NCBI GenBank assembly: GCA_047967505.1
Contig: CM106538.1
DNA: 64,000 nucleotides
Strand: one strand, 5' to 3'
Origin: Dipteris shenzhenensis
Lineage: Eukaryota
The notes beneath the pieces were generated by a model that saw nothing but the letters and a program-made list of their open reading frames with translations, had not been told where the DNA came from and did not search any database. This document shows positions 651 through 31,454 of the stretch, in pieces (the first letter of the stretch is position 1; every line of letters starts with the position of its first letter). Both the position numbers and the translations under genes were made by a program.

Positions 651-2146
651 TGTTGAGATATCGAGCTCCACTCACGATATGCCAGGGTGACCGTTGTGCA
701 TTTATGTCACCAACTTGTTAGCTGCAGATGCAGTTGGTACACCGCCCATGAATAATAGCTGGATATCGATGACAACTATCTTTATATACTCTAGTTAGTG
801 GCTCGGTTAGTTTTCCACCTTAGTTAGGGACATGCCTAAATTGAGTGCAATAATGTTTGCACATGGGACCAGTGTAGTTGCAGATATTGATATCTGGCAT
901 AAACACATTGGTCATGTTAATGTACAGTGACTTAAATTAATGCAGGCCCAAAATATTATTGCAAGATTGCCTAAGTTCAAGGTTGCAAAAATGCATAAGG
1001 TATGTGAAGCCTATTAATTTGAAAAACAGGCAAGGAAACCATTTCCTAGACATGCTCAAGAGAGTGAGGCCATTGGAATTAATCCACTCTGATGTGTGGA
1101 CTACTAAAGCTGCATCTATTGGAGTCTGTCATTATTTTGTCACTTTTATTGATGACTACAGCAGAAAAGTTTGGGTATATTTTATGAAAAAGAAAAGTGA
1201 AGTGTTTGGGCATTTCAAAGCTTTTAACGCTATAGTTGAGAAAGAAATAGGCCTGCAAATAAAATGCTTAAGGTCAGATGGAGGGGGAGAGTACCTCTCA
1301 AATGAGTTTGCAAGTTTCTTACAGGAGCATGGCATAAAGCAGCAATATTCATGCAGTCATACCCCACAACAAAATGGACTTGCAGAAAGGAAAAATAGGC
1401 ATATTGGAGAGGTATCTCATGCCATGCTGAACGAAAAAGACTTGCTAGATTATTATTGGGTTGAAGCAGTTGCTACAGTAGTATACATAATGAACAGGAC
1501 TCCCACTGCAGCAATACATGGTGACGCTAGAGGAGAGGTATACTAGTAGGAAACCAGATATTTCTCATTTGAAAGTTTTTGGTTGCATTGCCTATGTTCA
1601 TGTGCTACATGAGTTGAGATCAAAGTTGGATCCAAAAGCTAAGAAGTGCAACTTTATTGGTTATTCTCTGTAGCAGAAAGGGTATAGATGCTATAACCCT
1701 TCCACTTGTAAGTTTATAGTGAGCACAGATGTTATTTTTGATGAGATGAGTAGCTAGTATAAACCAGTAAATGTGATTGATGATGTAGATGCACAAAATG
1801 GTAATGCTACACAGAATTCAGAATAGCAATCACAAAATATTAGTGGACCTATAGTGTCCTGTAGCAGTGGTTCACATACTTTGCCATGGACAGGTAGATT
1901 GAGATCAGGAGGATCTCCTCAAAGCAATGCAAATAGTGGTATGCAAGGATCACAAAATGGAAAAGAGAAAGTAGATCAGCCCATGGTTGATGTGAATGCA
2001 GGTCACTTTTATGTGGATGGTGAATCCAGTGGCTCAAAACAGAGCCTTGATGATGAGTTGGGTATTCCTTCTATTGTTACACCAGGAGTAAGGAAGACAA
2101 GGGATGTTTTGAGAGCACCTGGTAGTGAGCCTATTTTGCCAGGTCT
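651..2146 (+). mobile_element. Ty1/Copia LTR retrotransposon, family B, internally deleted (left part)
   Basis: LTR start TGTTGAGATATCGAGCTCC at 651 matches the LTRs at 21122(-) and 60579(+). The LTR is cut at ~820 and joined directly to the GAG-pre-integrase region (DMPKLSAIMFAHG), followed by integrase. Confidence 0.9.
830..1760 (+). pseudogene. Copia integrase (frameshifts/stops)
   Basis: LELIHSDVW, FVTFIDDYSRKVWVY, LRSDGGGEY, TPQQNGLAERKNR, then the SH3-like SKLDPKAKKC region. Confidence 0.92.
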
Positions 2147-2381
2147 CATGGATGATTTTTTCACGTTAGCTTCATTAATAAGAGAAGAATCAAATGATTA
2201 AAATGACACAAATTTAAATTAAAGAATGATATTTTCTATAATGGCTTGGTAGAAGGTGTCTTGTTTGATATTTTAAGTATTTTTTTAGTCGTAGTTTATG
2301 ATTACGAAAAGTAGGTAAAAATTCAACTAAATTAATGAATAGAGCTAGAGTAGTGAATATGCAGTAAGTCATGTATTTACT

Positions 2382-2406
2382 TGTGTGTGTGTGTGTGTGT
2401 GTGTGT
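2382..2406. repeat. (TG)n microsatellite
   Basis: Direct reading. Confidence 0.95.
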
Positions 2407-2703
2407 GAAAATCTAACTTTAATTTCATCATCTACTTCTATACATTTATATATTTAGAAATTTATCACAATGCAAAGAACTTGCCAATCAATAGAGGCTT
2501 TAAATATAAATGTACCCTTCAAGCATTCTCATATATTTAGTACACTTAAGCCATCTATCCAGTCTCACAATCTTGTATAATGGAAGATTCTACAGATTTA
2601 TGATAAGAAATAAGAAGAAATGAACTAAACTAAAATGCCACATGCAAATACTTAAATATATGTATCAATGCATAGGGGGACATACTCTCTTTCTATTTTC
2701 ACA

Positions 2704-2706
<3 letters not shown>

Positions 2707-2743
<37 letters not shown>
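2707..2743. repeat. (CA)n microsatellite
   Basis: Direct reading. Confidence 0.95.
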
Positions 2744-2746
<3 letters not shown>

Positions 2747-2886
2747 GTTGTTGGTCTTGGCATTGCAGTCCCATATGAGCAAGACCTCTCCTAGCTACAT
2801 ACACCTCTAGATGTCCTTGTGGAGTGCTAAGAAGGTAAGATATGTCCCTAGAGATTGTCCTAATATAATTCAATGTCTGTGGGGAT

Positions 2887-3132
2887 CTCGGGGGGTCACT
2901 CATCATATGTAACCCTATCACGTGAGTTCAACAGAAGGATTTTTTTTATTTCTAAAATTTATAGAAATAAATATACATAAGGGACTATTTAGAATAGTTT
3001 TGGAAAAAATTTACAGATTTGTATAGAAAAGGGTTACATTTTATTAATGAAATTTTTTACAGATAAGGGAGTTTAAATATAAGCCTTGAATGCACGTGAT
3101 ATAGAGGATTTATACATAGTGACCCCCCTGAG
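2887..3132. mobile_element. MITE copy 1 (246 bp)
   Basis: TIR CTCGGGGGGTCACT / AGTGACCCCCCTGAG; perfect 8-bp TSD GTGGGGAT (2879-2886, 3133-3140). Confidence 0.95.
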
Positions 3133-4249
3133 GTGGGGATACATAACATGTTGTAATCCCCTCTCTCTCCCAACTCGCTTTAGGGATGCACATTGATGAA
3201 TGAGCAAAGGGTGACAATGGAAGAAAGGAAGAATTAAGAAACCCCATCCTTTGCCATGTTTATATTAGCCCACCCACGTTCCCAACCCAATCCTGTACCC
3301 ACATTAGCCATTCAGCCCTGCGTGGGCATCATTTTGTCCTATCAAGATGCGTGCTCTTGCTTTTTATTAGCCTTTCTATATTGATCTCTATATCTGTACA
3401 TCATGGAAATGCCACCCTTTTGAACCCTTTGGATCATCAGTCATTGCTTAATCAGATGACAATGTCCCCAACATGATGGGCAAAAAAGCCTTTGCTAATG
3501 CACTAATGCACATCTTTTTTGTTCAATAGCTTTTGTAGTAGGTTACAATGATAACATTGATGCACAATGGGCAAAGGATATTGCGTAATCTCTTACAATA
3601 TTGGCCAACAATGCATGTTGTTTTTGTTCCTAGGTTTGTAGTAGGTTTGAGTCACAAAATTAATGTACAATTCGCAAAGGGTATTAACTTTGTCTTTAAA
3701 CATTCCTCTATCTAATGTATGCCAAGTGGCCATGTGCAAGCACTTGAGTTTAGGGGCCAACTCATGTTTGAGCTTTCTCCTTTGTCTCTGGCTTAGCTTG
3801 CGGCTTGCATATGTGTGTGTGTGTGTCCCTGATTGATTGTACTTACTCTCCACATCCATAGGAATAGTGACACCAACAAAAATAGCCATGAAAGGAGTAT
3901 AGCTCAAACTTAGGGAGTTTGTTCCCCAAATATCATCCTGAGACAAGGTTACCATTGAGTGTCTCAAATGAAGCTGAGCCTTGCTAGTCCAGGTTTGAGT
4001 CTCATGCATCATGCATGACCACAAAAAGGTGAAGGTGTGAGGGTGCTCAGGGAGTTTGAGCCCCAAATCACCCGATCTAAGGAGTGGCGAGGCTAACATA
4101 AGCGCTATTTGAAAACTGGTTAGGACCACCTCCTAGTACCAGGTTTGTCCCAAGATCTTTAATATGGTTAATACAAGTGCCATTTCTGCTAGTAGGGAGA
4201 GTCCGTAAGAATAGCAATATGCCTTGGCACCCTATGAGCCCAAGAGCCC

Positions 4250-4560
4250 ATGGTTGTAAAGTGAGGGAGAGTGCTAAAAAGGAAAAGGGTTGGCCCTCCC
4301 TTCAAAAGGTGACTTGTATAAAAGGCCAAATGTTTGACTTTGGTCTTCATTGTTGTTTGCACAAGTTTGAATACAAGCTCCCTCTTCTCTTCCAAGAGAG
4401 TATTTTGGGTGTTCTCTTGTTTCAATTGTAGTGCCTTTGTGGTTGTCACTCTATCCCCGTTTCTCCCTCTCCTCTTCCCTTCCTCCCCCTCCCTTCTCCC
4501 TCCTCTTCCTCTCCCCTCCCCTCTTCCCCTTCCCTCTTCCTCGTGTGAAACCACATTGCA
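4250..4560 (+). repeat. Dispersed LTR-like repeat (shared with ~14910-15180)
   Basis: GGCCCTCCCTTCAAAAG..GACTTGTATAAAAGGCCAAATGTTTGACTTTGGTCTTCATTGT is near-identical at both sites. It has a TATA-like box followed by a pyrimidine-rich tract. Ends were not resolved. Confidence 0.55.
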
Positions 4561-6571
4561 ACAATCCGAAGGCCGCTTTAGTGACACTTGCGGATGGCTT
4601 GTGGTATGCATTGGTCCCACAAGTAGCTGGGAGTGGAAGCTCCATCAAAATATCTTCAACTACCCCACGACACATGAGTCACTGTTGAGACAGACCCACT
4701 ACATGGGTCTATGAGGCAAAACTCATGAACATCCAATCAATAACAATGCTATGTCTTTCTACTTATATGGTGGGGTTCTGGTGTTTTCAATTATCAATGA
4801 ATCTCATGCAACCATGATATTGGTTCTTTGTTCGACTCTTCAAGTATATATGGGCTAATAGTCTAAAAACCTTCAATGTTTTGGTACACTGCTTTACAAG
4901 TCTGCACTATACATCTCAAAGTAATCATTTATTGACTAACCGGATGGACGTGAGATCTTATACAAACGTTGGTGGCTTTTACAATGGTTATGCAATCAAA
5001 GGCACAAGGTTGGCACATGCTATGTACAATTGGAATGGATAGTGTGATTGATAGTGTGTTGTTGGAACAACGTGCCTATGATTTAAGTAAGGATAAGATT
5101 ACATTTAATGCTCTTGGCAATAAGTAAGGATAAGATTCCATTTAATGCTCTTGGCAATGCTCCCTAAATCTTTGACGACTTATGTACATATTCAGTCTCC
5201 CTGTATGGTTGCACCACCTTCTTGTATTGGCATTCTCTTCCATCCCTCTACCTTGCTCTGGCTGTGTGTAGTCCCCTCTATCCTACTCCATGCTGAGCGA
5301 CTGTTCTTCTTCTTTGTAATAATTGGCATCCTGTACCCCATCTTCCACTCTTTGTGAAAGTTTGTTTGTTGCTTTGCACTAGTGTTTGGACCACTACACC
5401 TCCCTTGCTCACGTGATCCTATGGCAGATTGATTCTTAGGTACGTATTTTTTATCTTCTTGATCCCTTTGTGTTCCACTTATATGTCTGGAATGTATCTC
5501 TCTTTGGAATGCATCTCTGTAAGCCTCAGTGTACGTAGGAGGAAAGCCTTGGCTGCATTACCATTCTATAGTATTATGTCTTAATCTCTTATTTTGCTTT
5601 CGTATTGGTCTCTATTGCATTTTTCATGAACCTAAAGAATGTGTCTCACAAGGTTCAGTTTTTAGTCTTTAAGGTGTAGACTCACTGGTTCCCACTCGTG
5701 GCTATCCCATTGATGGACTGCTTTATTGATCTATAACATCTGCTTGGTAATAGCTAACACTCAGGACTATGGGAGAGGTATTTACGTATCTCTCACTTTC
5801 TTTTAGCAAGGCAGTTTGCACTTACCACTATTTCTTATCACTTGAAAGTGGATGGTTCTTAAAGTCTAGAGGCAAGCCATACCGAAATTTCATTTACGAG
5901 CAAGCATATGCAGTAGCTGCTTACATTTGCGCTACCTTGAGCTCCTGGCATGCATGCCCTAGCACTTGTCTTCTACTAATGGCGTCCGTATTCCCTACTA
6001 TGAGGAGGATTTCCTTCTTATTTTGCATGGGAACGTGGAAAAACCCCTTCTCAGTTTCTCCTACTCTTTACACGACTTTTACTTAGGACAACATCGCACT
6101 GAGCACTCAAGACTAGTGATGGTGGCCAAGCACTTTGAGTCTAATTATTAAGTATATGGCAGGACTTTCTCCAGCATAGGGTTCATAAATCATTTAGCAT
6201 AATTATTCGTGATAGTAAGTATGGGGTTACCCGTTTAGCATACATGTGCACAAGCATAATGATGTCTACTCTGACACACTTATTACTTTATACACTTATC
6301 ATCTTCAACTTTTGAATCTGGATGGTGGTTTGGTTCTTTGGTACAAGCAATAACAAGCTGGGGTAAGCAAGCATTACCTATCTTCCCTATCAAAACTATG
6401 ATGTTCTAACACTTAGTTTCTCTTGGATGGTGGCAGGTAGGTTGACCCCGACCTTGGATCTCAAATTATCGGAAAGATTTAGCATTTAAACTTTGTATTC
6501 CACATTTGGTATTGATCGACTATTTATTATCCCACTATTGATCTTCCTCTCAGGCTCTCTCTGTCTACTCG

Positions 6572-8350
6572 GCAAGTTTCTTAGATCTAGCTGACAACCT
6601 GAATAAAAATATGCTTATTTATTTTTTAAAAGTTTCTGTTGTGGATATGCATATGCATCATTGTCTGGTATGCATGATGTGATGTGCTCTTTCTTTTTTA
6701 ATGTATTTATTGGTCCTTTGTATAATGTAAGTTGAAATTGGTTTGGCATGATTTATATAGTGTAGTATTATGCTTTCAAACATGAAAGAAGGGCTTGGTT
6801 TAGGAAGTGGTGTCTGGTTCCTGGCTTGGTGTCTGGTTTTTGTTGTGAATAAGGCTAAGAGGCAACACGACCTAGGACCAAGTTTCTTAGATCTAGTTGA
6901 CAAGCTGAAGAAATGTAAACTTATTTGTTTTGTAAAAGTTTCTGTTGTGAATATGCATATGCATCATTGTCTATGATGTGCTCTTTCTTTGTTAATGTAT
7001 TTATTGGTGCATTGTATAGAGTAAGTTGAAATTGGTTTGGCATGCTTTATGTAGTGTAGTACATAAAAGAAGGGCTTGGTTCGGGAAGTGGTGTCTGGTT
7101 CTTGCACTCACAAGGTAGGGGGCTAAGAGGCACCATGACCTAGGACCAAGTTTCTTAGATCTAGTTGACAAGCTGAAGAAATGTATGCTTATTTATTTTG
7201 TAAAAGTTTCTGTTGTGAATTGCATCATTGTCTGTGATGTGCTCTTTCTTTGTTAATGTATTTATTGGTGCATTGTATAGAGTAAGTTGAAATTCATTTG
7301 GCATGCTTTATGTAGTGTAGTATTATGATCTCAAACATGAAAGAAGGGCTTGGTTTAGGAAGTGGTGTCTGGTTCCTGCGTTCACAAGGCAGGGGGCTAA
7401 GAGGCACCAAGACCTAGGACCAAGTTTCTTAGATCTAGTTGACAAGTTGAATAAATGTATGCTTATTTATTTTGTAAAAGTTTCTGTTGTGAGTATGCAT
7501 ATGCATCATTGTCTGTGATGTGCTCTTTCTTTGTTAATGTATTTATTGGTGCATTGTATAGAGTAAGTTGAAATTGGTTTGGCATGCTTTATGTAGTGTA
7601 GTACATAAAAGAAGGGCTTGGTTCGGGAAGTGGTGTCTAGTTCTTGCACTCACAAGGTAGGGGGCTAAGAGGCATCATGACCTAGGACCAAGTTTCTTAG
7701 ATCTAGTTGACAAGCTGAAGAAATGTATGCTTATTTATTTTGTAAAAGTTTCTGTTGTGAATTGCATCATTGCCTGTGATGTGCTCTTTCTTTGTTAATG
7801 TATTTATTGGTGCATTGTATAGAGTAAGTCGAAATTCGTTTGGCATGCTTTATGTAGTGTAGTATTATGATCTCAAACATGAAAGAAGGGCTTGGTTTAG
7901 GAAGTGGTGTCTGGTTCTTGCATTCACAAGGCAGGGGGCTAAGAGGCACCAAGACCTAGGACCAAGTTTCTTAGATCTAGTTGACAAGTTGAAGAAATGT
8001 ATGCTTATTTATTTTGTAAAAGTTTCTGTTGTGAATATGCATATGCATCATTGTCTGTGATGTGCTCTTTCTTTGTTAATGTATTTATTGGTGCATTGTA
8101 TAGAGTAAGTTGAAATTGGTTTGGCATGCTTTATGTAGTGTAGTATTATGATTTCAAACATGAAAGAAGGGCTTGGTTCAGGAAGTGGTGTTTGGTTCCT
8201 GCACTCACAAGGCAGGGGGCTAAGAGGCACCATGACCTAGGACCACTAAGTTCCTTAGTTCTAGTTGAAAACCTGAAGAAATATATGCCTATTTATTTTT
8301 TTAAAGTTTATGTTGTGAATATGCATATGCATTATTGTTTGGTATGCATG
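6572..8350. repeat. Tandem array, ~270-285 bp unit, ~6.5 copies
   Basis: CAAGTTTCTTAGATCTAG recurs at ~6573, 6879, 7147, 7421, 7689, 7963 and, diverged, at ~8247. Confidence 0.95.
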
Positions 8351-8395
8351 ATATGATATGATCCTTCTTTTTTTAATAAGTTGATATTAATCAGG

Positions 8396-9951
8396 TCCTT
8401 CGCGATGAGCTTCTTGTAGAGATAAATAACATGAGTACAAAGGAGATGGAGATGACCATAGAAAGCACTTCTAGATTGCATACTCTAAAGAGCAAAAGTG
8501 TTTTGAATACAAGGTGTCAAGTAGAACTAGATCCTAATAGGAAACACCTTATAGGGATCAGAAAATGGGACACTGATGTTATGCTATGGGTAGAGAGCAA
8601 CATTGGGAATGTCTTGGCTTGGTTTAATGAAGCATGCACAAGGAACCATACATTTGCAAATGATATTAATAAGGAAAAGATGCATTTATGGAATTCCTTC
8701 TGGGCTAAAAATAAGACAAAGGTTATAAGGTCAGATGTGAAAACCATACTAGCTATAAGTTGGGAAAAAAAGTCAGCAATTGCTTTCAGAAGGGTGGAGG
8801 AAGTAGCAAAAGGAGAAGAAAGTGCAAGGATTTTGAATGGAAAAATGTGAGAAGTGCAAGGTAGTGATTCACAAAGGCTACAGATCAAGGCAAGTCATAT
8901 AAGCAATGTGTCCTTCATGATGTACATAACTAAAAATGAGATCCAAGTTGGTGAAAAGATAGGTTCTGGCACATATGGATTTGTCTACAAAGTACAACTC
9001 ATAGGTGCTCCAGGATTATTATAGCATATATTCTATGCTAAAAAGCAATATAAGGGTGACATAGGGGATCATACACGAGAGGCAAGGAAGGAGGGACAAA
9101 TGCAAATTTGGCATCTTGTGCTTGTTCGTGTTATTGCAGCAACTCCAGAAGAGCCCTTGTGGACTATCACACCATATTTTAATGTTGGTAGCTTGATGCA
9201 CTTCATGAGAACTTTACCATATGAGCAAGGTAGGTTTAGGTGCTATGTTGACATAGTCCTAAAAAGAGGCAAAGAAACGAAGGCAAGGGCACAAGGAACA
9301 TTGGAAGATGTATGCACATGGAAGCCAATAGAGCAAATTAACTACTTTAGTTCAAATGTGCACCACATTATACATGCAGTCATTACTGGATTAGCAAGGT
9401 TACATAAGGGTCAATGGATTCATATAGACTTACATCTTGGTAACATTCTATTAGATCTCATAGCAAATGGTGCATGCAGAGTTGGCATAATTGATTAAGG
9501 GATGGCACTAGTTTCTTCAAAGAATAGAAAAGCTTTTAAGGATATGAAGAAGACATCTCTAGAGATTGAACAACAATTAACACAAAGGAAGCAGAAGAAA
9601 GAGCAAGAGCATGCACGAAAGAAGTGGTTTGCACCTGAGCTTCAATGTTTTTCTAGGAGAGGTGTGTATAGCCCTCAGACAAACATATATGAATTAGGAT
9701 GGATAATTACAGAGATTATATAGTTTTGGGAAGATGTAGTTGGGTATTTTGAACAGTCTCGCCACATGCTTGATAGTGCACTATTAAAGTGTATTAAAAA
9801 ACATGCCTTTGAAAAGATGATGACTGAGAATTCTATAGAGAGAATAGCACTTATGGATACCTATAGTATCCTATCAACATTTGGATGTAATTCAAGTCTA
9901 GCAATGCGGCCCCTTGATGAGATGAATGTTGCTTTGAAGCTAGCAACATAG
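8396..9951 (+). pseudogene. Eukaryotic protein kinase (non-RD, HxDLHxGN type) with an N-terminal extension; 4 in-frame stops
   Basis: One continuous frame joins ORFs 8431, 9100, 9502 and 9766: KIGSGTYGFVYK, FYAKK, HIDLHLGNILL, IID*G (DWG), WFAPE, TNIYELGWI. Putative splice acceptor AATCAG at ~8395. Confidence 0.9.
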
Positions 9952-10297
9952 AAAATATACTCAGTCTACCTTTGAATGTTGCTTTGGATGTAACATTGTA
10001 AGTCTAGCAAAGCGGCCCCTTGATAAGATGAATGTTGCTTTGAAGCTAGCAATATCTTGTTGTTGTATTCATGTGGTGGACTTGTATTCATATAGTAGAT
10101 TTGTATGAAAATAAATTAAAGTATTTCTTCTCTTGGAAGATGTGTTATACTTGATTTGCAACGCACTTGAAGTGCACATAATTTTATAAGGATAAGAATT
10201 ATTATGCTATTTTTTCAGCATGTGTTTAGAGAAAAGAAATTATGTTCTATTTTATGCTCAACTAATAAAGACATAATTTTATAAACAGGTACTTATC

Positions 10298-12993
10298 ATG
10301 GGAAGAAAGAAGAAAGTTCAAGCTCTGGAGAAAAACACAAAAATGACATCTTTCTTATTACCTTCTACATCATTGGGCACTAATATAAACATGTTTACAA
10401 CATCAAGTACACTAGAGAATTTTCTCTCAAGCTCATCATCCATGAATCATGAAGCAATTTATGGGATTCCTGAACATGCTTCGGGCACAATGCATCATGC
10501 TAGAAATCAATGTTCTAGATCACTGCTCAACGATGATAGTTTTAACAGGGATTTGAGTTTTCAAGTCTTGGAAGCAAGGAAGATAGGATCACAAAATTGT
10601 AATCAAGGGAATGCAATTGGAATTGAAAATTCATTAGCTGGCACATCATTGACAAATAATGAGGTAGTGGATTTAACTGGATTGGAAAGTGGAAAAATGT
10701 CAGAAATAGTATCATCAATGTCAACACCAATAGAAGAAGCCATTGAGAATGCATCACAAAATTGCAACTCTTCAAGTAAGTAGAAGAGAAAGAGAGCTTG
10801 GGATATTTGTAGGAATTTTCAAGAAGATTGGGTAGCCAAATATCCTTGGTTAGACGTAGAACAAGTGGACACTAGGGATGCACCAAAGTGGGCCATTTGT
10901 AAAATATGCACATGGGCAAGGAAAAAGGAGGTACGGTTACAATTGAAGATTGATATGATTGAGAAGCATTGTGGGAAGGTTTACAAGAATGTAGAAGGTA
11001 CAAGTAATGAAAAGAAAGTGATCAAAGAGTGGGACAAGGAAAATAACTGCCACTTAAAAAATGAGATTGAGTACAATAAGTTCTTGCTTGCATAAGAGTC
11101 TAGCAGAAATAAAAGTGAAGGATCATTGAAAAAGCGTTGGGAATGTATCGATGATCAGGTTGATAGAGAAAAGATAGTGCAATTCTCAACTATCATGCAA
11201 ATATTGAAGCAAGGCGACTCACTGATAGACTTCTCAGGTTACCAATCATATCTTCAATTTTTGGATGTTCCTAATTTGTTGGCAAGCATGCATTGGTCAA
11301 GGACTAGCACAACAAATATGGCTAACCACATGAACCAAGTCATAATTGATGATTTAAAGGAGACTTTAAAACTTGCAAACTTTTTTCCTGTGTCATTGGC
11401 TGAGTACACAGCTGTGGATACTACATCATGGTTGGGAATGCATTTGTATGTGGTAGAAAACAATAAGAGAAAACCATATTTTTTACATGTATACAAACTT
11501 AATTTAGAATCCAATGCTAATAACTTAGTGCAAGTTTTGATCCAAGCTTTAAAAGAGTATGGAGGCATGACAAAGTTTGAGATGGTCAAGAAACTTGTTT
11601 GTTTTGCATGTGATCGTGCTTTGGTCTTGCAAGGTTGTCAGAATGGTGTCTCTGTACAAATAGAAACAAAATATGCTCCTTACTGTGCTGGGATACATTG
11701 TATGGCGCATCGCACAAATCTAGCTTACAAAGTTGTGTCCACATTTCCATCAGTATAAGGAATCGAGACGGTGGTTAAAAAAAGCTTCTCTTAATTTTGC
11801 AAGAGTCCAAAAAGATACAATCAATTTAGAGTTATTGCAAAAGCACTGGGTACAAAAGGGAGGAAGATTTTGAAGAATGTGGATACTAGATGGATATCTT
11901 TGGTTCAGCCAGTGAAAAGATTATGGGATGAATACAAGACTTTGGTCTATTTAATGCACATGGAGGCAGAAGAAGAGGTTAAAAAGGGAGATATTTTGTA
12001 TCATAAATTGACCAACATAGATTCGATATTGGGATTGTGTGGAATTATTCCACCTTTAGACAAAATGAATATGTTGAGTAAAATGTCGCAAGCGAATGAT
12101 ATTTAATATATCAATGAATACGTCAAGGCAATAAAACTCACTAATTTGAGTATAACAACAGCATACGATAAGAAGTCAAGCTCCAGTTTTCAAGACAAGA
12201 AATTGTTTAAAGATTGGAAAAGTTTAATAGACCTAGATGGGAATTCCTCACTTTTAACATATGACTGGAAGGATATGTTTGCCTTTGTGCAAACAATCAG
12301 GTTTTCAAGATGATGAGAGAAAATAAACGACACAAAAGACTACAATACATTAAAAAAGAGGCTTTTTTAAAGAAAGTACAAACAGTGAAAAATGCCCTTA
12401 GTGAATTTGCAAGTGCAGTGGTAGATGAGATCAGAAGTAGGTTTCCATGAAATGACCTAATGGAAGCATTTACCATCATATTTTCACATTTTTGGGTCAA
12501 TGGATCTTATGAAAGTATCAAAGCAGGTCCAAAGAATCATTTGGATGCTCTCAAAAAGCACTTTGGACGAGACATTGACATGGACAATATAAAGTACAAT
12601 GGTTTGTTGGATTTTGGAAAGCTTTATTCATAGTTTTCCCTTTTTGGAGAAGTCATGCACCAGCAAAGTAATTTAATGGAAAATGTTCAAATGCAAGGTT
12701 CGATGGTTCGGCTTTGGAATGAGCTCTCTCGCATTACATTCCTACAAGATAACATTTCTGAGTAGTTCAAGCTTGCAAATTTATGTAAAACATTTATTCT
12801 TGGCTCAGTTGAGGATGAAAGGTGTTTTAGTACTCTCGGTTACTTGAAGAATAAGCTTCGTAAGAAGCTAGATGATAACTTCGATCTTAGCTTGAGATTA
12901 TACTCTTGTTCTTATGATGTTAGTAGCTTTTCGTATGATAGAACATTAGCACTTTGGAAGTCAAGCTGTAAAAGAAAAGGCTATTTAAACTAG
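10298..12993 (+). pseudogene. hAT transposase (TTF-type Zn finger, DDE core, C-terminal dimerisation motif)
   Basis: RNFQEDWVAKYPWL..CKIC, FACDRA (DGA position), IHCMAHRTNL (CxxH), DTRWIS, GSVEDERCFSTLGYLKNKLR; several stops and frameshifts. Confidence 0.9.
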
Positions 12994-13336
12994 ACTTTGA
13001 GAATTTTCTTCCCCCATTGGATTTGAAGGATATTAATTATCCTTAAACAATTTTATGTTTTGCATACTCTACAGAATCCTAAATGCTAGCTATTTCATGT
13101 ATTTTGAAATTATGTAAAATGAAAAAGACAAAGTTTTCAATATAACTAGTTTTTAGTATATTTGTGAAAATTGAAAGTTTTTTAAATTCCCTAGAATATT
13201 TAGCCAAGTTTTGAAACAAAAATTATAACAAAAGATATAATTCGCCAATTCTTTGAAACTTTTAAAATAATTTATGAAAAATTTCGCCAGTATATTATAA
13301 TACTATATTTCTATACCTTCGATAAAAACATCCCTG

Positions 13337-13423
13337 GCAGGTCTATCAAAGCTAGATATCCTATGGATAGGCTGAAATATGATGGATTTACAGCCATTCA
13401 CTATGCCTATATGGCCAAAGTTA
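13337..13423 (+). mobile_element. Continuation of the Copia family B copy after the hAT insertion
   Basis: GGATAGGCTGAAATATGATGGATTTACAGCCATTCACTATGCCTATATGG equals the reverse complement of ~22695-22745. Confidence 0.9.
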
Positions 13424-13680
13424 TGTTAGATATCAATGCTCCACTCTCGTGTAACTACGCGAGAACCAGCTAACTCTACTTGTAAGCCCCCCATATGAGG
13501 AGAAGGCATTTGAGTAGCTCGGTTATCCAATAGGTCCTAGTTTGGAAACCAGATGGGGGCCATGTGTGGCCTAATGGCTGGACAACTTCAAATAGAGTTG
13601 GCACACTGCCAACTAGGGTACATGCAAGTGTGGGAAGGCATCCCATGACTGACCGCACTGAAGGTAGATGGAGCATTTCT
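13424..13680 (+). mobile_element. Partial Copia LTR related to families A/C
   Basis: TGTTAGATAT start and the shared TTGTAAG(G/C)CCCCCATATGAGGAGAAG motif; 3' end not found. Confidence 0.7.
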
Positions 13681-15848
13681 CAGGGCATCCCATTTTCAGG
13701 TTGTGGGGCCCGTTTGGAGCCCCAGATGGATCCCAGATGGGAGGATGAAGGGGCACATCAGCCCCTAGAAGAACACGACCGACCACCACAGGAGTTCACA
13801 CCTGACCATGAAACATGGTATGAACCCATAACCTCCTTCCGATCGGTTGAGGATGTGGTACATATGTAGCAAAGCTTTCATCTCTCTAGGGAAGATATCA
13901 TGGACTCGGTGAGATCCCTCACCCAGAGTCATTCAACTTAGCTTCTGCAAGTGGTGGCAAGAGCACAAATGGCATACTTGGGAAGGCTACATCTGACTAG
14001 ATTATAAGATGATGCTACCCAAGGTAGAAACTAATGTGGGACTCCAATCTCAATAGAGAATCCATTTTTTATAGCATACAGCATTTTGGACCATATCTTG
14101 TTGTGCACGGTTTGAATGGAGAATCAACCCAACATTTATGCCCCACGCCGATGATGGAGTTGGCGCAATTTTGGAAAGATGTGAGAAGTAGATCCTAACA
14201 TTGCCTACAATTTTTCATGCTTTGATTTTTCTAGAATTGGCTCTTCCCTCACTCTAGCCACCCAAATGAGAGAGTTCAACATGACAATTACATCCTAATT
14301 GCATTTACCCCTGATCCAACAATTGTAGCCACAATGCATTTTTTTTGGCTATTGATAATTTGCAAAGGGATGTGCTAGCAGAAGACTTACCAGTTGAAGA
14401 GAACCACCAATAGTTGTGAGCAAAGATCATCTTCAATTTGAATGTGGACCCTTCATTCTCTCAAGTAATGTAGCTCTATGTATGTGTGATAAATCTTCAC
14501 GGGCATCACATACAAAATTTTTAAGATATGTTCAAGACACATTTTTGGAAACCTCTCCATCCATTTTGCCACATCTCCGATAGGACATTCGACTGCTACT
14601 ATTGCATCATGAATAATGCCCTCAAGTCTGACATTATGTACCAAACACAATCCATGCAAGGATTGTGAACAAGAAGGGCGGCATGTTAATAGGCATTGAT
14701 TATGTTAACACGTACATTGATCATGTTAACAAATCTGACCAATCCAAAGCCTATGAGTTTTGAGCCACAAATGGCTTCTTTTTGAAGTAGTCATAAGGAT
14801 TGCCCAAATTGGCAAGGATAACACAAGTTCCATTTGGATCTTGTATATCGATAACAAAACATCCATTTGGAGAAAAAGGAAGGTTGAGAGAATTAGCATA
14901 TTGGCCCAAGTCGTTGTAAAAAGAGAGAGAGTGGTACAAGGAATAGGATCGGCCCTCCCTTCAAAAGATGACTTGTATAAAAGGCCAAATGTTTGACTTT
15001 GGTCTTCATTGTGTACTTTCAAGGAATGGAATAGAAGCTATCTTTTATCTCATTCTCTTGCATTGAGTTTCTTTGTCCTTTCTTGTGAGTTGTATTGTGA
15101 TTTCCACTACCCCCTTACTCCCATCCCCCTCCCTCATGCTCTCTTCTCCACTACTACTACACACGGGCCTTGTTTTGAAGATTAAGCACACACAGTGCGC
15201 TAATGATTGGTACATAAAGTGGGATCAAAAAGGTTGGTATATACCGACCTTTGAAAGACTTGTTAATGGTTGGTATATATGTTAGATATGCCCAATGCAC
15301 CACCCTCCTAGTAACCACCAGTGGTCCAAGGTGCTGAAGTTGTAAGGCCCCCATATGAGGAGAAGCCATGTGTGAGCCCGGGACACTGGATGGATCCTGA
15401 CTTGCATGTCAGATGAGGTCTATCAATGAGACCGTTGATGGTAGGAAGGTGATTGTGTGGGAGCTCCTTATTCTTGCTGGGGGGTCCCAGGGGGGCCAGT
15501 GGCCCCCTGGTGGGGGTTTGGGGGTAGAAGTCCTTGAATATTCAATGGACGACTAGTTGGTTCCACCGACTAGGTCGACTGGTTGGCTCCACCAACTAGG
15601 TCCACTGATTGACCCCACTGATTACATTGATCCGACTACCACCCTCATAGCTATAAAGACGCGACCTCCCCAGTCCATTGTATCAGATCAGTTCAGAACA
15701 GACTAGATCACTGTGGGAGCACTTGGGTGGATGTAGCCATCATCTGTACTACATCGATATTAAAGGAAAATTTTATTCATATCCAGTTTTACTGTGTACT
15801 CTCTATTCTTTGTTCAGTTTTTGTTCCACTGTGCCGTGTAATTTAACA

Positions 15849-15997: not shown

Positions 15998-18900
15998 TTG
16001 AGGATTCGCCCACCAGCCTTTAGTGAAGGCAAGCTAGATGGTACAAACTACACTTTGTGGAAGTTTAAAATTACTGCTATTCTGGATTCGTATGAGCTTC
16101 TGGAGATAGTACTGGGGACTGACCCAGAACCACAAGGAACCCCCGACCCAGTAAATCCAAGGAGCATGATACCTCATAATGCTGACCTTCTATGAGCTTG
16201 GAAATGCAAGAACGCAGATGCTCTGTATGCCCTAGTTACAAGTAGTACTGATAGTTTTTTGACCTTGATTCAGCATACATCTAAGGCAACTATGGCTTGG
16301 AACATATTGAAGAGTCAGTATGAGACGTGGAATCAGACAAGGATCCAAAACTTGGAGAATCAATTCACAGCTGAGAAGTTTAATGAAGGAGAGACAACAG
16401 ACGCGTTCATAACTTGAATCAAAAATCTATGTGACCAGATGGCTGGTGCTGGGATACAAAAGACTAGCGAAGAGCTAGTTCGGCAGTGTCTCCGGATATG
16501 TCCACTAAGGTTTGATGGACTAGTAACAGCGTTTAACACTCAAGTGAGACCTCAACCATTGTCATTTGACGAGTTTTGTGCTTTACTTATGGAGGAGGAA
16601 TTGAGGCTTAAAGCTCGAGATAGAGGCAGCAATGGGGATGCCATGTTCTCTGCCACTACGAAAGGCAAAGGCGGTTCCTCCACCAAAGGTGAGTCCTCTA
16701 CGAGTGGCGACAAAAAGAAGAAGGGTGGCAAGAAGAAGTTTTAGGGAGAATGCTTCTATTGCAAGAAGAAGGGCCATGTGATTGTAGATTGCCATGTCAA
16801 GAAAGCAGATGAAAAGAATGATATCCTGAAGAAGACAGATAAGGGGAAAGAGATAGCTAACACAGTGGATTGGATCTATTTCTCGCCATTGAGGAAGAGT
16901 GTTCCTTAGTTCAAGAAGTGTTAACCATTGATTCATGGGTGTTGGATAGTGGTGCCTCCCATCACATGACCTGTAAGAAGAGTCTATATTGTTCCATGCA
17001 GCCTCTATAGGAACCCATCACTGTGATGGTTGGAAATAATGCAAAGTGCCCTATTGAGGGTACAGGTATGGTTTCATTTGTTTTTGTAAATGGAGATGTT
17101 AAGAAACTATCTAATATGCTGTATGTTCAACAAATCAAGAGAAATTTGCTATCAGTTGCTTCCATAATTGACCTTGACCATGAGGTGAGGTTCAATAAGA
17201 CAGGAGCAAAAATTATGGATAGTGTGTTGGCACATGAGTAAGGAGGAACAACTTGTATGAGCTAAGTGCTCTTACAGCCACTGCTGGAGTGGGCACAAGC
17301 AGACTTTGGCACAAAAGATTTGGCCACATCAGATTTGCAGTGCTGAAGGAGATGCAGAAGCAAGGTATGGTTGCTCACTTACCTGCAGTAGCAAAAATCA
17401 AAGAACCATGTGAAGCTTGCATGATGCGCAAGCAACAGAGAAAGGCATTCCCACAAGAAAACAAGAATAGAGCAAACGCTCCTCTAGAGTTGGTGCATGT
17501 TGACTTGTGCAGTAAGATGCCTACATAGGCCTTGGGGGGATCTTCCTATTTTTTATTGATTGTCAATGACTATAGTAGGAAGATGTGGGTGTACTTTCTT
17601 CGCAAAAGCCTCAAGCTTTTGGTAAATTGAAAGAATGGCTACAGCTTGTTGAAAATGAAACAGGGAGAAAAGTGACGAAAATCAAATCAGATGGTGGTGG
17701 TGAGTTTGTTTCTACAGAGTTTGGAGATTTTTGCAAGAGCAAAGGGATCAAGAGACAAACGATGACACCACATATGCCTTAGCAAAATTTGGTTGTTAAT
17801 GTCGAATGTGGACCACCATGGAGATGGGGAGGTGTATGTTGAAAGGTGCTCGATTGTGAAACCGCTTTTGGGCTGAGGCTATCAATACTGTAGTTTACAT
17901 CCTTAATCGTAGCTATACAAAGGCACTCAAAGGTAAAACACCACATGAAGCTTACAACAGTAAGAATCCATCTGTCTCCCACTTCAGAACCTTTGGGTGT
18001 GAATGCTATGCGCATGTACTAGACAAAGAGAGAAACAAGCTACAACCAAAAAGCACCAAATGTATCTTCTTAGGCTATTGTGATGAGAAGAAAGCCTATA
18101 AGTTTTATGACCGAGAGACAAAGAAGATCATAGCAAGCCACGATGTGGTGTTTAGGAAGCAGCCATATGCAGTGGAGGTAGAGAAGAGCTCTTCCACTTT
18201 ATCATCAAGCGAAGAGGTAATTCGCTATGGACTTGTCCCAGGAGCTATAAAGGAGGAGGAAATATCAGATGATGAAGGTGTAAGTCACCAACCTATTGTT
18301 ACACCATCGGAAAAGCCATTGCTACGATGGGTAAGGCACCTTTATGACCATGATAACCATATGCCTATGTTTGTTGAGCAGCATCCAGATGGACCAAGGC
18401 AGTCTCAGAGAATTGAGGAGCAAAGGAGAGCTTCTGCTCACATAGTCAATATGGCCTTGATGGCTAAGATCATTGCAGAAGTAAAGGAGCCTGCAAGTTT
18501 GGAGGAAGCACTTGAAAACTGAGATTGGAAAAACGCTATGTAAGTAGAATATGACAGCATCATGAAGAATGAAACTTGGGAGCTAGTAGATCAACCACCT
18601 AATAGAAAGGTTATTGGCACCAAGTGGGTTTGGAAGGTAAAGTACAAGGCTAATGGGACTTTGGAAAAGTACAAAGCGAGATTGGTTGCATAAGGATTTT
18701 CGCAGGTTGAAGGGTTTGATTTTCAAGAATCTTTCACTCCGACTACTAGAATGACCACTATTTGCACAGTACTATTGGTGGCTACTCATAAAAAGTGGCC
18801 AGTTTATCAAATGGATGTAAAATCAACATTCTTGAATGGTGACCTCAAGGAGGAGGTGTACATGGCTCAGCCACCTGGGTTTGAGGCCCCCCATTTTGAG

Positions 18901-20001
18901 AACAAGGTATGTAAGCTGAAGAAGGCTCTATATGGGTTGAAACAGGCCCCAAGAGCATGGTACCAACGGATACACAGATTCTTTCATAAATTAAACTTCA
19001 AAAGATGTGCCTCAGATGCTAACTTGTATGTGTATAGGAAAGGTGGAAACTCTGCTATTATGTGGATGATCTCCTTATTACAGGTGACTATGAAGACATG
19101 ATCCAACAGGCTAGAAAGGCATTGAGCATAGAGTTTGAGATGACAGATTTAAGCTTGATGCACTACTATTTGGGGATTGAAGTCTAGCAAGAGCCAGGCA
19201 AGATCTTCATCTCTCAGTAGAAATATGCAAGGGAGACCTTGAAGGCGTTTGGTATGTCTGAGAGCAAGGAGATAGCTACACCTATGGAGGTAAATGCGAG
19301 GTTGTCTATGGAGGATGCCTCACCACCAACAGACATCGAGAGGTATAGGAAGTTGGTCGGCAGTCTCATCTATTTGTGCAACACTAGACCGGACATCAGT
19401 TTCGCTATTGGCATTTTGAGCAACTTCTCCAATAAGCCCAGGAGAATCATTGGAATGCAGGGATGTAGATGCTCAGGTATGTGAGGGGCACTCTTGATTA
19501 TGGCATCACCTATGATACGAGCACTTCCTTGGCTGGACATTGTGACTCAAATTGGGTTGGAGATGTTGATTCTAGGAAATCAATTTTTGGATATTGTTTC
19601 TCTTTAGGTTCAGGTATCTTTTCTTGGATCAATAAGAAATAACCAACAGTGGCATTGTCTTCTACCGAGGCTGAGTACAAAAGGTAGCATGTTTTGCTGC
19701 TTGTGAAGCAGTGTGGCTGAGGAGGATCTTGTGGCACATGGGAGTGCAAGAGGATGAGGCAACTGTGCTGAGGTTTGACAATCAAAGTTGCATGGCCATT
19801 GCTAAAAATCTAGTGTTTCATGCATGCACAAAACATATAGAGATTCAGTATCACTATGTGCATGATTTGATCGAAGAAGGGATAGTGGAATTGGTCTACT
19901 GTCCAAGAGAGAAAAATGGAGGAGATATCTTCACCAAGGCACTTGGGAAGGATCAGCTTCAAGGTCATCTTCAAAGACTCGGCATTGGGCTGAGAAGGTA
20001 G
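15998..20001 (+). pseudogene. Copia gag-PR-IN-RT-RH polyprotein, many stops/frameshifts
   Basis: KLDGTNYTLWKFK, CCHC knuckle, [51 protein letters not shown]. Confidence 0.93.
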
Positions 20002-20774
20002 TTTACCTATGGGTTGACATTGAGGGGGGGTGTTAGATATGCTCAATGCCCCAACCTCCTGGTAACCACCAGTGGTCCAAGGTGCTCAACTTGTAAGGCC
20101 CCCATATGAGGAGAATCCATGTGTGAGCTCAGGAGTCCGACATTGGATGGATCTTGACTTGCATGTCAAATGAGGTCTATCAATGAGACCGTTGATGGTA
20201 GAAAGGTGATTGTGTGGGAGCCCCTTATTCTTGCTAGGGCCTGGGGGGTCCTAGGGGGGCCAACGGCCCTCCTATTAGGGGTTTGGGGGCGGAAGCCCCC
20301 GAAGCAACGCTACTGTTGGGGGTTTGGGGGCGGAAGCCCCCGAAGCAACGCTATAGGGAATATTCCTTGAATATTCCATGGACAACTAGGTTGACTGGTC
20401 GGCTCCATCAACTAGGTCGACTGGTCGACTCCATCGACTACGTTGATCCAACTACTGCCCTCATAGCTATAAAGAGGTGACTTCCCTAGTCTATTGTATC
20501 AGATCAGTTCAGATCAGATCAGATCTTCCAACTAGTAGCTCTTCACCTAGTATCTGTCTAGATCACCATCTAAGCTCCACTATGGGAGTGCACGGGTGGA
20601 CGGAGCCATCATCTATACTACATCGGTATTGAAGGAAAATTTTGTTCATATCCAATTTTGCTATGTACTCTCTATTCTTTGTTCAGTTTCTGTTTTGCTG
20701 CGCCGTGTAATGTAACAATATACTGACTCATAAGGTTGGTATATATCGAACTTTACAAGTCTGTTAAAGGTCTA

Positions 20775-23700
20775 TGAAGAGAGTGGGAGAGAAGGAAAAA
20801 GGCTCACTTACAGCTTTCTCACATACACAATGGGGGAATATACAAAAAGGTGGAGGCTGAAAATAGTTTTTCTCTTCTTAGTTGTGAAAGCCAAAAGAAC
20901 TCTAAGTACAAAACAATAGGTGAACCCTCTATGTGGGTCTCAAACCAAACTCAGCTAACTATGGTGGCATATTAACTAAGCCACTAACTAGAATACATAA
21001 AGATAGCTGTCATCTAGCCATTATTCATGGGCGGTGTACCAACCACATCTTTAGCTAACAAGTCGGTGACATAAATGCACAATGGTCACCCTGGAAAATC
21101 ACTGGAGCTCGATATCTCAACACCCCCCCTCGAGCTCAATCCCAATTCCTGCACACCAAGAAGGTCTCTGAACTTGCGCAACTTCTCTGCACCCAATGCC
21201 TTTGTGAATATGTTAGCTACCTGATCCTCTGTACTGACATAAACTAAATCAATAAAACCTACTAGAACCTTCTCCCACACATAGTGATAATGCACCTCAA
21301 TGTGCTTTGTTCTAGCATGATAGACTGGGTTATTTGCCAAGTGTATACTGCTCATGTTGTCACAATAAATGACAACTGGCCCATCTATAGGTTGATGCCT
21401 ATCATAAAGTAGCTTATACAACCAAGCTACCTCACATGCAGCCATTGCTGCACCCCTGTACTCAGCCTCTGTGCTCGACAAGGAAACTGTAGGTTGTTTC
21501 TTGCTACTTTAAGTGACTGCAGCACTCCCAAAAGAGAACATATATCCACTTGTAGATCGTCTATCAGAAATACTACCAACCCAATAAGCATCAGTGTATC
21601 CATGCAACTGTATCTGAACCCCAGTCTCATAAAATAGTCCATAATACAATGTGGACTTCACACACCTCAGTATGCATCTAGCCACATCCAAATGCGGTTT
21701 CCTTGGAGCTTGCATAAACTGACTTACCAAACCAATAGCATAGCTCAAATCTAGCTTGGTAATAGTCATATAAATCAAACTTCCTACTATGCATCTGTAC
21801 ATAGTAGGGTCTTCTAGAAGCTCACTTGCATCTGTGCTCAGCATCACATTCTGCTCCAAAGAAACTGAAATAGGCTTACAGCTTTTCATCCCACATTTGG
21901 ACAGCATGTCCAATCCATACTGCCTTTGCAAGAGCCATATCCCACTTGTGGATCTAATCACCTCAATGCCCAAGAAGTAAGAAGTAACACAGCTCTCCCA
22001 AATCCTTCATCTCAAAAATCTACTTCAATAGCATTCTCACATGAAGGATATCTTCATCCCTATCACCTGTGAGGATCAAATCATCAACATAAATGACAAA
22101 TAGCCTAATACGTTTCTCTGTTTTTCTCACATAAAGTGAGAAATCTGCCTTGGAAATCTGAAATCCAATAGTGACAAGATATTGTCCTATCTTGTCAGAC
22201 CATGCTCTGGGTGCTTGCTTCAAGCCATACAAGGCTTTCTTCAACTTGCAAAAAAACTCAGGATGAACAGCATGGACATAACCTGGTGGTTGCTCCATAT
22301 AGACCTCTTCTTGCAAATCACCATGCAAGAAGGCATTCTTTACATTTATCTAATGTAAAGACCATCCCTTTAATGCAGCCATAGCAATGACTGCTCTTGT
22401 GGTTGCCATCCTTGCAACAAGACTGAATGTTTCTTCACAATCAATGCCATATGTCTGTGCATACCCCTTGACAACTAATCTTGCCTTGTATCTATTCATA
22501 GAATCATCTGCATTGTGCTTCACCTTATAAACCCACTTGCAGCCAATTGCATTCTTGTCTTTAGGCAAAGGCACCAATTCTCATGTAGCATTTGATTCCA
22601 AGGCATCCATTTCTTCATCCATGGCTTTCTCTCATTTTTCTTTTCCCATGGCTTGCTCAAAAGAAGTGGGTTTTGGTTCATGTATCACTTTGACCATATA
22701 GGCATAGTGAATGGCTGTAAATCCATCATATTTCAGCCTATCCACAAGATACCTAGATTTGGGAAGACCTGCACAAAATAGGCTCACTACCAGGTGCTCT
22801 CAAAGCATCCCTTGTCTTTCTTACTCCAGTAGAAGGAATACCCAACTCATCATCAAGGCTCTGTTCTGAGCCACTGGATTCACCATCCACATAAGAGTGA
22901 CCTACATTCACATCAACCATGGGCTGATCTACTTTCTCTTTTCCTTTTCATGATACTTGCATACCATTATCTGCATTGCTTTGAGGAGATCCTCCTGATC
23001 TCAATTTGCCTGTCCATGGCGAAGTATGTGAACCACTGCTTGAGGACACTACAGGTCCACTAATATTTTGTGATTGCTGTTGTGAATTCTATGCAACATT
23101 ACCAATTTTTGCATCTACATCATCAATCACATTTACTGGTTTATACCAGCTGTGCTCATCTCATCAAAAACAACATCTCTGCTCACTGTAAACTTACGCA
23201 TAGAAGGGTTATAGCATCTATACCCTTTCTACTACAGAGAATAACCAATGAAGATGCACTTCTCAACGTTTGGCTCCAACTTGGATCTCAACTCATCTGG
23301 CACATGAACATAGGCAATGCAACAAAAAACTTTCAAATGAGAAATATCTAGTTTCCTACCAGTATACCTCTCCTTTGGCATCATGCCATGTATTGCTATA
23401 GTGGGAGTCCTGTTCATTATGTAGACTACTGTAGTAATTGCTTCAACCCAATAATAATTTGGCAGGTCTTTTTTCTTAAGCATGGCATGAGATACCTCTC
23501 CAATATGCCTATTTTTCCTTTCTGCAAGTCCATTTTGTTGTGGTATGACTGCATGAATATTGCTACTTTATGCCATGCTCTTGCAGGAAACTTGCAAATT
23601 CAATTGAGAAGTACTCTCCCCCTCCATCTAACCTTAGGCATTTTATTTGCAGGCCTGTTTCTTTTTCAATGATAGCTTTAAAAGCTTTGAAATGCCCAAA

Positions 23701-30678: not shown

Positions 30679-31208
30679 GTTGAACTGGAAAAAAGGAAAA
30701 AAATCTATTACTGATGAGCTGAGAAGAAAGGGGAAGAAAAGAGAGGCTTACTGTTAGAGCGCGTCTATAGACCCGTCTGATTTGCGCGTCTATAGACACA
30801 TCTAATAGAGCATCTAACAGAGCATTTAACAGAGCGTCTAACAGAGCATTTAATAGTGCATCCAACAAAGCGTCTAATAGAGCATCTATAGATGCATCTG
30901 TGTGTGTCTGCAACAAGCCAAACACGTGGTTAGACGTGCCTGTAGACACGCTTTTAGAGGCGCCCTGAGACGCGCCTATAGACGTGCTCCGACTGACGAG
31001 ATTTCTAAAAAGTCGAAAAGGACATTGCGCCCGACACAAAAACGTGACACTCATACCTAGATCCTGCGCTTCCTAGATACGAGAAAGTACAAAACTGGAG
31101 AGAGCAAACTTCCAAACAAGATCAACTGCAAAAAGACTTACTTGGATAAAGGTATGGAAGGTTCTTCTTTCTTTTCCAAACTTGCTTCGTCTCCTTGTTC
31201 GTCCTCCT

Positions 31209-31454
31209 CTCAGGGGGGTCACTCATCATATGTAACCCTATCACGTGAGTTCAACAGAAGGATATTTTTTATTTCTAAAATTTACAGAAATAAATATACA
31301 TAAGGGACTATTTTAAATAGTTTTGGAAAAAATTTATAGATTTGTATAGAAAAGGGGTACATTTTATTAATGAAAAATTCACAGATAAGGGATTTTAGAA
31401 ATATGCCTTGAACGCACGTGGTATAGAGGGTTTATACATAGTGACCCCCCCGAG
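31209..31454. mobile_element. MITE copy 2
   Basis: Same TIRs and body as copy 1; perfect TSD GTCCTCCT (31201-31208, 31455-31462). Confidence 0.95.

Follow-up and report, generated by a model that had tools for sequence, protein, structure and literature searches.

Classical autonomous hAT transposons such as Ac, Tam3 and hobo are not known to encode any protein besides the transposase. In fungi, hAT elements of Pseudocercospora fijiensis and its relatives captured histone H3 and were amplified to hundreds of copies, as described in the available part of that report (PMC6710886). Among the Mutator-like elements (MULEs), VANC of VANDAL counters the silencing of its own family, an activity established by experiment according to the accessible text (PMC13317346). 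The present analysis concerns a hAT insertion at positions 2147-13336 of a 64,000-nucleotide stretch of Dipteris shenzhenensis DNA (assembly GCA_047967505.1, contig CM106538.1; the entire stretch is referred to as the window), which holds a protein-kinase gene next to its transposase gene. The insertion is rather probably a decayed copy of a multi-copy, two-gene hAT family, the unit of which consists of a kinase gene and a transposase gene, co-oriented and intronless. The coordinates of all features are collected in Table 1.

The ends of the insertion bear out the first-pass annotation of this DNA (made from the sequence alone), which had reported terminal inverted repeats (TIRs), an 8-bp duplication of the target site (TSD) and the interruption of a Copia element at 2147-13336. 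The TIRs are 16 nt long and imperfect. hAT TIRs start with the consensus YARNG; the right TIR starts with CAGGG and the left TIR with CATGG, the latter departing from the consensus once. The two TSD copies (CCAGGTCT and GCAGGTCT) are identical at 7/8 positions, and the 8-bp length displayed here is a hallmark of hAT elements (PMC6710886 and PMC8903248, as far as their available text goes). Self-BLAST of the window aligned 830-2146 to 24042-22765 (88.7% over 1324 nt) and 13337-13424 to 22772-22684 (89.9%). Both matches overlap by exactly 8 bp, the duplicated site, and a three-way alignment showed the paralog to be uninterrupted. As this paralogous empty site lies in the same window and contains the 8 bases once, the boundaries of the hAT are placed beyond chance. 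The left flank carries an integrase core (rve, 2.7e-13) and the paralog across the empty site SH3_retrovirus and RVT_2 (2.1e-53), which identifies the host as a Ty1/copia-type element with its pol split between integrase and reverse transcriptase. On the right side of the hAT, only 88 bp of the flank align with the paralog. As the match covers no more than this, the host retroelement itself was rearranged or interrupted again after 13424.

Further copies of the element were sought in X1 and X2, two low-coverage DNA runs from different studies with the same species label, which were kept as contigs, each with 0.25 of the sampled words. In two contigs (record 8 of X1 and record 16 of X2) the match ends exactly at 13336, and the latter continues for 2487 bases past this position into other sequence. 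Since the contig matches stop exactly there, the right terminus is common to copies at other loci.

Inside the element, the kinase frame given at first pass as 8396-9951 is present as described with the exception of its start, as 8396 is out of phase (a translation begun there yields nothing but stops) and the frame truly opens at 8380. In-frame stops without a frameshift had also been reported; four internal stops were counted (TGA 8848, TAG 9022, TAA 9496 and TAG 9721) ahead of the terminal TAG at 9949. Two Pfam families are matched above their curated cutoffs, PK_Tyr_Ser-Thr at 2.1e-13 (50.7 bits against 23.1) and Pkinase at 2.1e-11 (44.2 bits against 31.7). The relative P0043 aligns with kinase residues 73-518, the N-terminus of P0020 falls near residues 6-20, and the C-terminal RPxxEM motif directly precedes the stop. 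Judged by these alignments, the window kinase is a full-length, uninterrupted gene relative to its family, from the N-terminal region to RPxxEM, and is not a Pack-type fragment. It retains the family motifs with three exceptions. A stop has replaced the W of IDWG, KKWFAPE stands at the APE motif, and AKKQYKG is found in the AKK stretch. With a stop at the W codon and three more stops in frame, the window copy is unable to make the kinase enzyme.

The transposase gene follows on the same strand, 346 bp from the kinase stop to its ATG, close to the ~350 bp estimated at first pass. From the ATG at 10298 it runs in one phase to ~12261 and in another phase to TAG 12991-12993, giving ~897 codons. 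The claim that both genes are decayed to a comparable degree holds, with 0.76 stops per 100 codons in the kinase vs 1.0 in the transposase. Intact proteins of 692-912 aa that share 35-41% identity with the transposase occur in Adiantum nelumboides, Ceratopteris richardii, Taxus chinensis and metagenome or Logan contigs. UniRef names the Ceratopteris richardii relative a DUF4371 domain protein, and the relatives carry the precomputed PF27073 assignment (FAM200-ZBED5_RNase-like). The family profile matches the DUF4371 proteins P0005 (2.5e-10) and P0069 (3.3e-16), and a C-terminal block, GSVEDER.FS...K.K.RN.L, is conserved in the family. In the nearest Atlas cluster, which serves as a lead only, 95% of the members carry Dimer_Tnp_hAT (PF05699), and the shares for DUF4371 and PF27073 are 93% and 91%. 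A local Pfam search returned no family match for the window transposase, for its pieces or for its plant family, the PF05699 dimerisation domain was not matched at E≤0.1 by the window pieces or by 12 aligned family members and outgroups, and the transposase profile found nothing at E≤1 among solved structures. The hAT-type RNase H-like core is indicated by the PF27073-bearing relatives and the DUF4371 profile matches. Based on the 8-bp TSD, the TIRs and a transposase related to PF27073/DUF4371 proteins, the element is filed under hAT.

The contigs of X1 and X2 address the repetition of both genes in the genome. They were aligned to the window at ≥80% likeness, and the figures given in the following are summed contig word depths, not copy numbers. 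The three kinase bins have depths of 26.4, 35.6 and 18.7 in X1 and 31.1, 36.7 and 18.9 in X2. The two inter-gene bins follow with 22.3 and 22.2 in X1 and 8.3 and 30.6 in X2, and the six transposase bins with 13.9-23.1 in X1 and 10.2-29.4 in X2. Overall, this corresponds to ~27-29 for the kinase vs 19-20 for the transposase. The retroelement flanks reach 6811.5 (left) and 1229.4 (right) in X1, and 2443.8 and 1999.9 in X2. Conversely, the bins at 4976-6166 are at 0, from which it follows that single-copy DNA was not assembled in these runs. Measured against the zero bins, the similar depth of both genes indicates that the kinase is repeated about as much as the transposase. A single-copy kinase, named at first pass as an outcome that would speak against an integral gene, is thus not what was found, as both depth and divergence resemble those of the transposase in two runs.

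Of 3070 pieces, 16 were listed, and divergence from the window was read from the 12 of these that fall on the two genes. It amounts to 44/1140 (3.9%) for the kinase and 182/4316 (4.2%) for the transposase, so that the two genes are of similar age. For frames that were once open and have diverged by 4%, the expected number of stops is 2.8 in the kinase (4 were counted) and 5.4 in the transposase (9 were counted). Compared in this way, the stop counts make it plausible that neither frame was broken at the origin of this copy and that the two have since decayed together. Moreover, one contig per run joins 9312 to 10173 and puts half of the kinase beside the transposase leader, the shorter side of the joint comprising only 24 letters.

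Taken together, it is likely that the kinase is part of the repeated unit, was present in the progenitor when the family amplified, and was open, like the transposase frame, when this copy inserted. The sequence of events would then begin with a progenitor hAT that already had the kinase before the family amplified. The present copy would have inserted with both frames open, followed by neutral decay of both. In intact copies the kinase may have been transcribed separately, with a transcript reaching from around the 274-bp tandem repeats to the AATAAA at 10110-10115, which lies between kinase and transposase. CAG triplets that resemble splice acceptors occur at 8394 and 10289, just ahead of the respective frames. 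The array stops 7 bp before the kinase frame opens (contig depth 3-23) and is a possible promoter or binding region. In two raw-read RNA runs carrying this species label, no reads fell on 4976-13312, a result that is uninformative on the expression of intact copies.

Relatives of the kinase are few. A full HMMER search found 37 proteins at E≤1e-3 among 1.84 billion representatives, of which 27 are shorter than 250 aa, and the closest relative is 51% identical; a word-based protein search with the kinase gave no match. Names were looked up for 25 of the 37. They comprise three models from Adiantum nelumboides and two from A. capillus-veneris, as well as one protein of Diphasiastrum complanatum encoded at two loci, with a relative of at least 90% identity on another chromosome. 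Two of the Adiantum nelumboides models (P0007 and P0043) are near-identical dispersed paralogs on two contigs, and an Adiantum protein of 555 aa is an example of an intact member. The remaining looked-up matches are three weak ordinary kinases and otherwise contigs from ENA, Logan or JGI. Judged by these 25 names, the kinase family is rare and so far found only in ferns, a lycophyte and sequence-archive contigs. Its rarity, patchiness, dispersed near-identical paralogs and many fragments would fit a gene travelling on mobile DNA.

A Logan contig of 1739 bases contains P0009 and P0022, kinase fragments that match query residues 279-389 and 402-465. Both probably derive from a single, broken kinase gene, in line with many relatives being decayed copies. 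Viral contigs were also searched. The alignment of the kinase core gave seven weak and short matches to generic kinases (26-50%, 31-234 residues), which were rejected as family members, and the transposase gave no match.

The alignment of the family shows GxGxxG, a lysine in xAKKYKG, HxDLHxxN, IDWG, PW(L/M)APE and a C-terminal RPxxEM. Kinases usually have DFG where this family has IDWG. The Asp is kept in DWG, and the catalytic residues are all visible in the alignment (motifs under their customary names). Pkinase is matched by 17 of the 21 aligned members. Against solved structures, the family profile found B-Raf at 7e-15 (~57 bits), with B-Raf and tyrosine kinases closest at ~1e-14. By these similarities the encoded protein is predicted to be a complete, highly divergent kinase of the tyrosine kinase-like (TKL) type. 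Members of the family are only 25-30% identical yet retain the catalytic residues, which would fit selection.

Several observations weigh against a two-gene unit. Within the element itself, codon usage does not separate the kinase and transposase from the retroelement genes: the correlation of relative synonymous codon usage is 0.76 between kinase and transposase, no higher than with the retroelement genes (0.52-0.79), and the GC content at third codon positions is 0.342 and 0.347 in kinase and transposase vs 0.376-0.426 in the retroelement genes. In X1 and X2, no listed contig bridges kinase and transposase at full length. The listed pieces on the two genes measure 248-630 bases, bar one contig of 4043 bases, and the latter covers only 11800-13336 of the transposase end before it exits the element. 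In other genomes, searching JGI metagenome contigs by means of the transposase alignment revealed 12 loci with transposases 46-100% related, and in 0/12 was a kinase found (tblastn, E≤0.01) within the upstream DNA present (10000 bases at L008; ~2100-2350 at L004, L010 and L011; ~1050-1190 at L003, L005 and L006; at most ~400 at the other five) or downstream (10000 bases at L001, ~5950 at L008). Likewise, none of the transposase gene models seen contains a kinase domain, and no fused model was found. In Adiantum nelumboides, the kinase models (contigs of 2.30 Mb, 312 kb and 327 kb) and the transposase models (contigs of 1.87 Mb, 1.29 Mb and 45 kb) lie on different contigs. Finally, Ceratopteris, Taxus and Ginkgo have transposase relatives and no kinase relative among the 25/37 named matches. 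These tests of the link are weak, since annotations often skip decayed transposon genes and one transposase cluster only was listed. The association of kinase and transposase looks lineage-specific and not general to this transposase clade. The suggestion made at first pass that the kinase is an integral second gene of this hAT family is thus supported in part, namely as to its place in the repeated unit; the regulatory or anti-silencing role put forward there is conjectural, and a link extending to the whole transposase clade is not supported.

The closest group of the metagenome loci may differ from the window element in kind. L001-L006, L009 and L012 hold intact or contig-truncated, open and intronless relatives of the transposase (full length ~874 aa, 70-100% alike). 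Similarity among them breaks off ~100 bp ahead of the start codon and, where downstream DNA is present, ~290 bp past the stop, and the untranslated regions have an intron-like structure. The 90% cluster P0061 comprises 239 member sequences. From these sequence features, the eight loci resemble a conserved and expressed gene more closely than they do copies of the present element; it looks like a widely sampled, possibly domesticated, hAT-derived gene of a plant-like organism. At L010, a TIR-like motif pair was considered as element ends and rejected, as neither a TSD nor a further TIR match was found. Two further relatives combine transposase-family pieces with other domains: in P0067 (Taxus chinensis, 960 aa) they are joined to a diacylglycerol kinase (PF00609/PF00781), and in P0068 (Ginkgo, 672 aa) to an ABC-transporter membrane domain (PF00664). 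Both are either chimeric annotations or real transposase-host fusions.

Two other histories of the kinase have to be weighed. A progenitor hAT may once have gained a complete kinase (through retrocopying, through capture during gap repair or out of another element) and amplified it without benefit. Whole-gene capture by an autonomous hAT followed by amplification is documented (PMC6710886, available part), and the transposase relatives devoid of a kinase, the separate contigs in Adiantum and the 9312 to 10173 joint, which suggests copies with a truncated kinase, all agree with such a course. However, the kinase does not stem from a widespread host family; its family is rare, patchy and multi-copy with many fragments, and the retention of catalytic residues at 25-30% identity is easier to understand if selection acts somewhere. 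The kinase is furthermore complete, co-oriented and equipped with a possible polyadenylation signal of its own, and its frame was probably open when this copy inserted. We therefore consider gain and amplification without benefit rather unlikely. Provided that the kinase belongs to the repeated unit, it is possible, at somewhat less than even chances, that selection on the element kept it as an accessory factor. Candidate roles would be phosphorylation of the transposase, or of a host repair or silencing factor.

Alternatively, array and kinase (~6.2-10.2 kb) might constitute a separate element that landed in this hAT copy or its parent, in which case the match in abundance would be coincidental. 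A 14-nt inverted pair (6195-6208 and 10196-10209, 13/14 complementary) lies close to the point where shared depth resumes and to the inter-gene gap, a full-length bridging contig is absent among those listed, and kinase relatives in other species were not seen beside this transposase. Conversely, the pair is flanked by AAATCATT and TTTTTTCA, which form no target duplication, and ~5 such pairs are expected by chance in 4.2 kb of like composition (a rough estimate; 65 pairs of at least 11 nt were reported). As termini of a nested element the pair was rejected, since it lacks a TSD and is likely a chance match. Depth and divergence match those of the transposase in two runs with cover over both junction bins, no listed joint removes exactly the 6.2-10.2 kb stretch, and the 9312 to 10173 joint ties the kinase to the transposase leader in both runs. 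A nested origin is thus very improbable. The first-pass annotation had named a separate insertion with its own termini and TSD as an outcome that would speak against an integral gene; neither such ends nor such a duplication were detected flanking the kinase.

The two-gene family preferred here would have consequences beyond this locus. If the kinase was carried through amplification, it would add a novel type to the accessory genes of DNA transposons, and accessory genes in other superfamilies can decide the escape from silencing (VANC in VANDAL). It could also explain the origin of a rare, patchy and multi-copy kinase family in ferns and lycophytes. More far-reaching, and doubtful at present, is the idea that the IDWG kinases are an element-borne accessory-gene lineage of DUF4371-type hATs of seedless vascular plants, in which selection on the transposon would have preserved the open frame for hundreds of millions of years. 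Under this idea, true two-gene members would exist in the hAT superfamily as they do in CACTA, PIF/Harbinger and some MULEs, and a transposon-encoded protein kinase would be described. Should the kinase be cargo only, the locus would still provide a clean plant case of whole-gene amplification by an autonomous hAT, which we otherwise found documented only for the fungal histone H3.

The remaining content of the element is heterogeneous. The nested miniature inverted-repeat transposable element (MITE)-like insertion has further copies in the window at 31208-31456 and 37419-37676 (92-94% alike, self-BLAST). Its bin (2991-3387) shows a summed depth of 30751.6 in X1 and 19456.4 in X2, by far the highest of the stretch, and a contig joint from 2665 to 3809 bypasses it; the MITE is outside the hAT family unit. 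RNA reads are present on this bin. The segment 4976-6166 is low in copy number, being restricted to the present copy or shared with few others; its open reading frames gave no Pfam match, and no clear termini were found for it. In the left part of the element, a (TG)n run (2380-2407) and a (CA)n run (2700-2743) lie ~300 bp apart in inverted orientation. A 100-bp stretch (4253-4353) is 90% identical to 14913-15012 in the right flank, and because its bin has raised contig depth (207 / 315) it is regarded as a separate dispersed repeat. Outside the hAT, the window is rich in further Ty1/copia-like copies and shared repeats that are 69-75% alike (15998-20121 and 45094-49208; also 15275-15848, 20031-20717 and 40745-41321).

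Table 1. Positions of the hAT insertion's features and of its empty site in the window
Feature	Position	Strand	Details
Left TSD copy, 8 bp	2139-2146	.	CCAGGTCT
Left TIR	2147-2162	+	CATGGATGATTTTTTC; 13/16 match to reverse complement of right end
Nested high-copy MITE-like element, ~250 bp	2884-3133	.	TIR GGGGGGTCACT...AGTGACCCCCC
Internal segment without contigs	4976-6166	.	three bins of depth 0 in X1 and X2
Tandem array, ~274-bp units, ~6.5 copies	6573-8373	+	TRF: period 274, 5.4 copies, 89% matches
Protein-kinase gene, pseudogenised	8380-9951	+	intronless frame of 523 codons with 4 internal stops and without frameshift
Local duplication, 56 nt twice, 95%	9880-10055	+	repeats last kinase codons
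hAT transposase, DUF4371/FAM200-ZBED5 type, pseudogenised	10298-12993	+	9 in-frame stops, 1 frameshift near 12244-12290
Right TIR	13321-13336	-	reverse complement = CAGGGATGTTTTTATC
Right TSD copy, 8 bp	13337-13344	.	GCAGGTCT
Empty site, paralogous Ty1/copia copy, same window	22765-22772	-	GCAGGTCT present once

Among known systems, the fungal H3-hAT is similar in that ~9.5 kb with TIRs and an 8-bp TSD enclose a transposase and a whole extra coding sequence, with many inactivated copies (PMC6710886, available part). There, the parent of the passenger is a known housekeeping gene and the copies were rendered inactive through repeat-induced point mutation, according to the same text (PMC6710886). 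Here, by contrast, the kinase carried along belongs to a rare family, the host is a land plant, and the decay is by ordinary point mutation. Pack-hAT elements of maize and rice also have ends of the hAT type and an 8-bp TSD, which enclose coding DNA other than a transposase, and Pack-TYPE elements in general are non-autonomous and capture and shuffle coding DNA (PMC8903248, in the part available). The window element differs in having a transposase and one complete, uninterrupted gene, and hence is not classed as a Pack-hAT. MULE accessory genes (VANC of VANDAL, Ulp1 in KIU) likewise represent a stable second gene beside the transposase, as far as the accessible text describes them (PMC13317346), albeit in another superfamily and as non-kinase proteins, while a function of the present kinase is inferred only.

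On the level of the proteins, the transposase groups with ZMYM1, FAM200, ZBED5 and GTF2IRD2 via PF27073, the DUF4371 profile matches and the Atlas neighbours. Those are mostly domesticated animal genes, whereas the window transposase sits between TIRs with a TSD. The kinase shares the eukaryotic protein kinase domain with B-Raf (TKL), a match that is weak at profile level. In contrast to B-Raf, its family has IDWG, an N-terminal region of its own and the C-terminal RPxxEM, and the window copy and its nearer relatives have a long charged insert between IDWG and APE. A literature search, with subscription journals outside its reach, found neither a kinase-carrying hAT nor a transposon-encoded protein-kinase accessory gene. 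The view taken at first pass, that hATs normally encode only a transposase and that gene capture usually yields fragments, is correct in so far as the arrangement is unusual. A whole extra gene is not unprecedented, given histone H3 in fungal hATs (available part of PMC6710886). In summary, an autonomous hAT with a second complete gene is unusual and has a precedent, and it is the kinase passenger of a rare lineage that is new.

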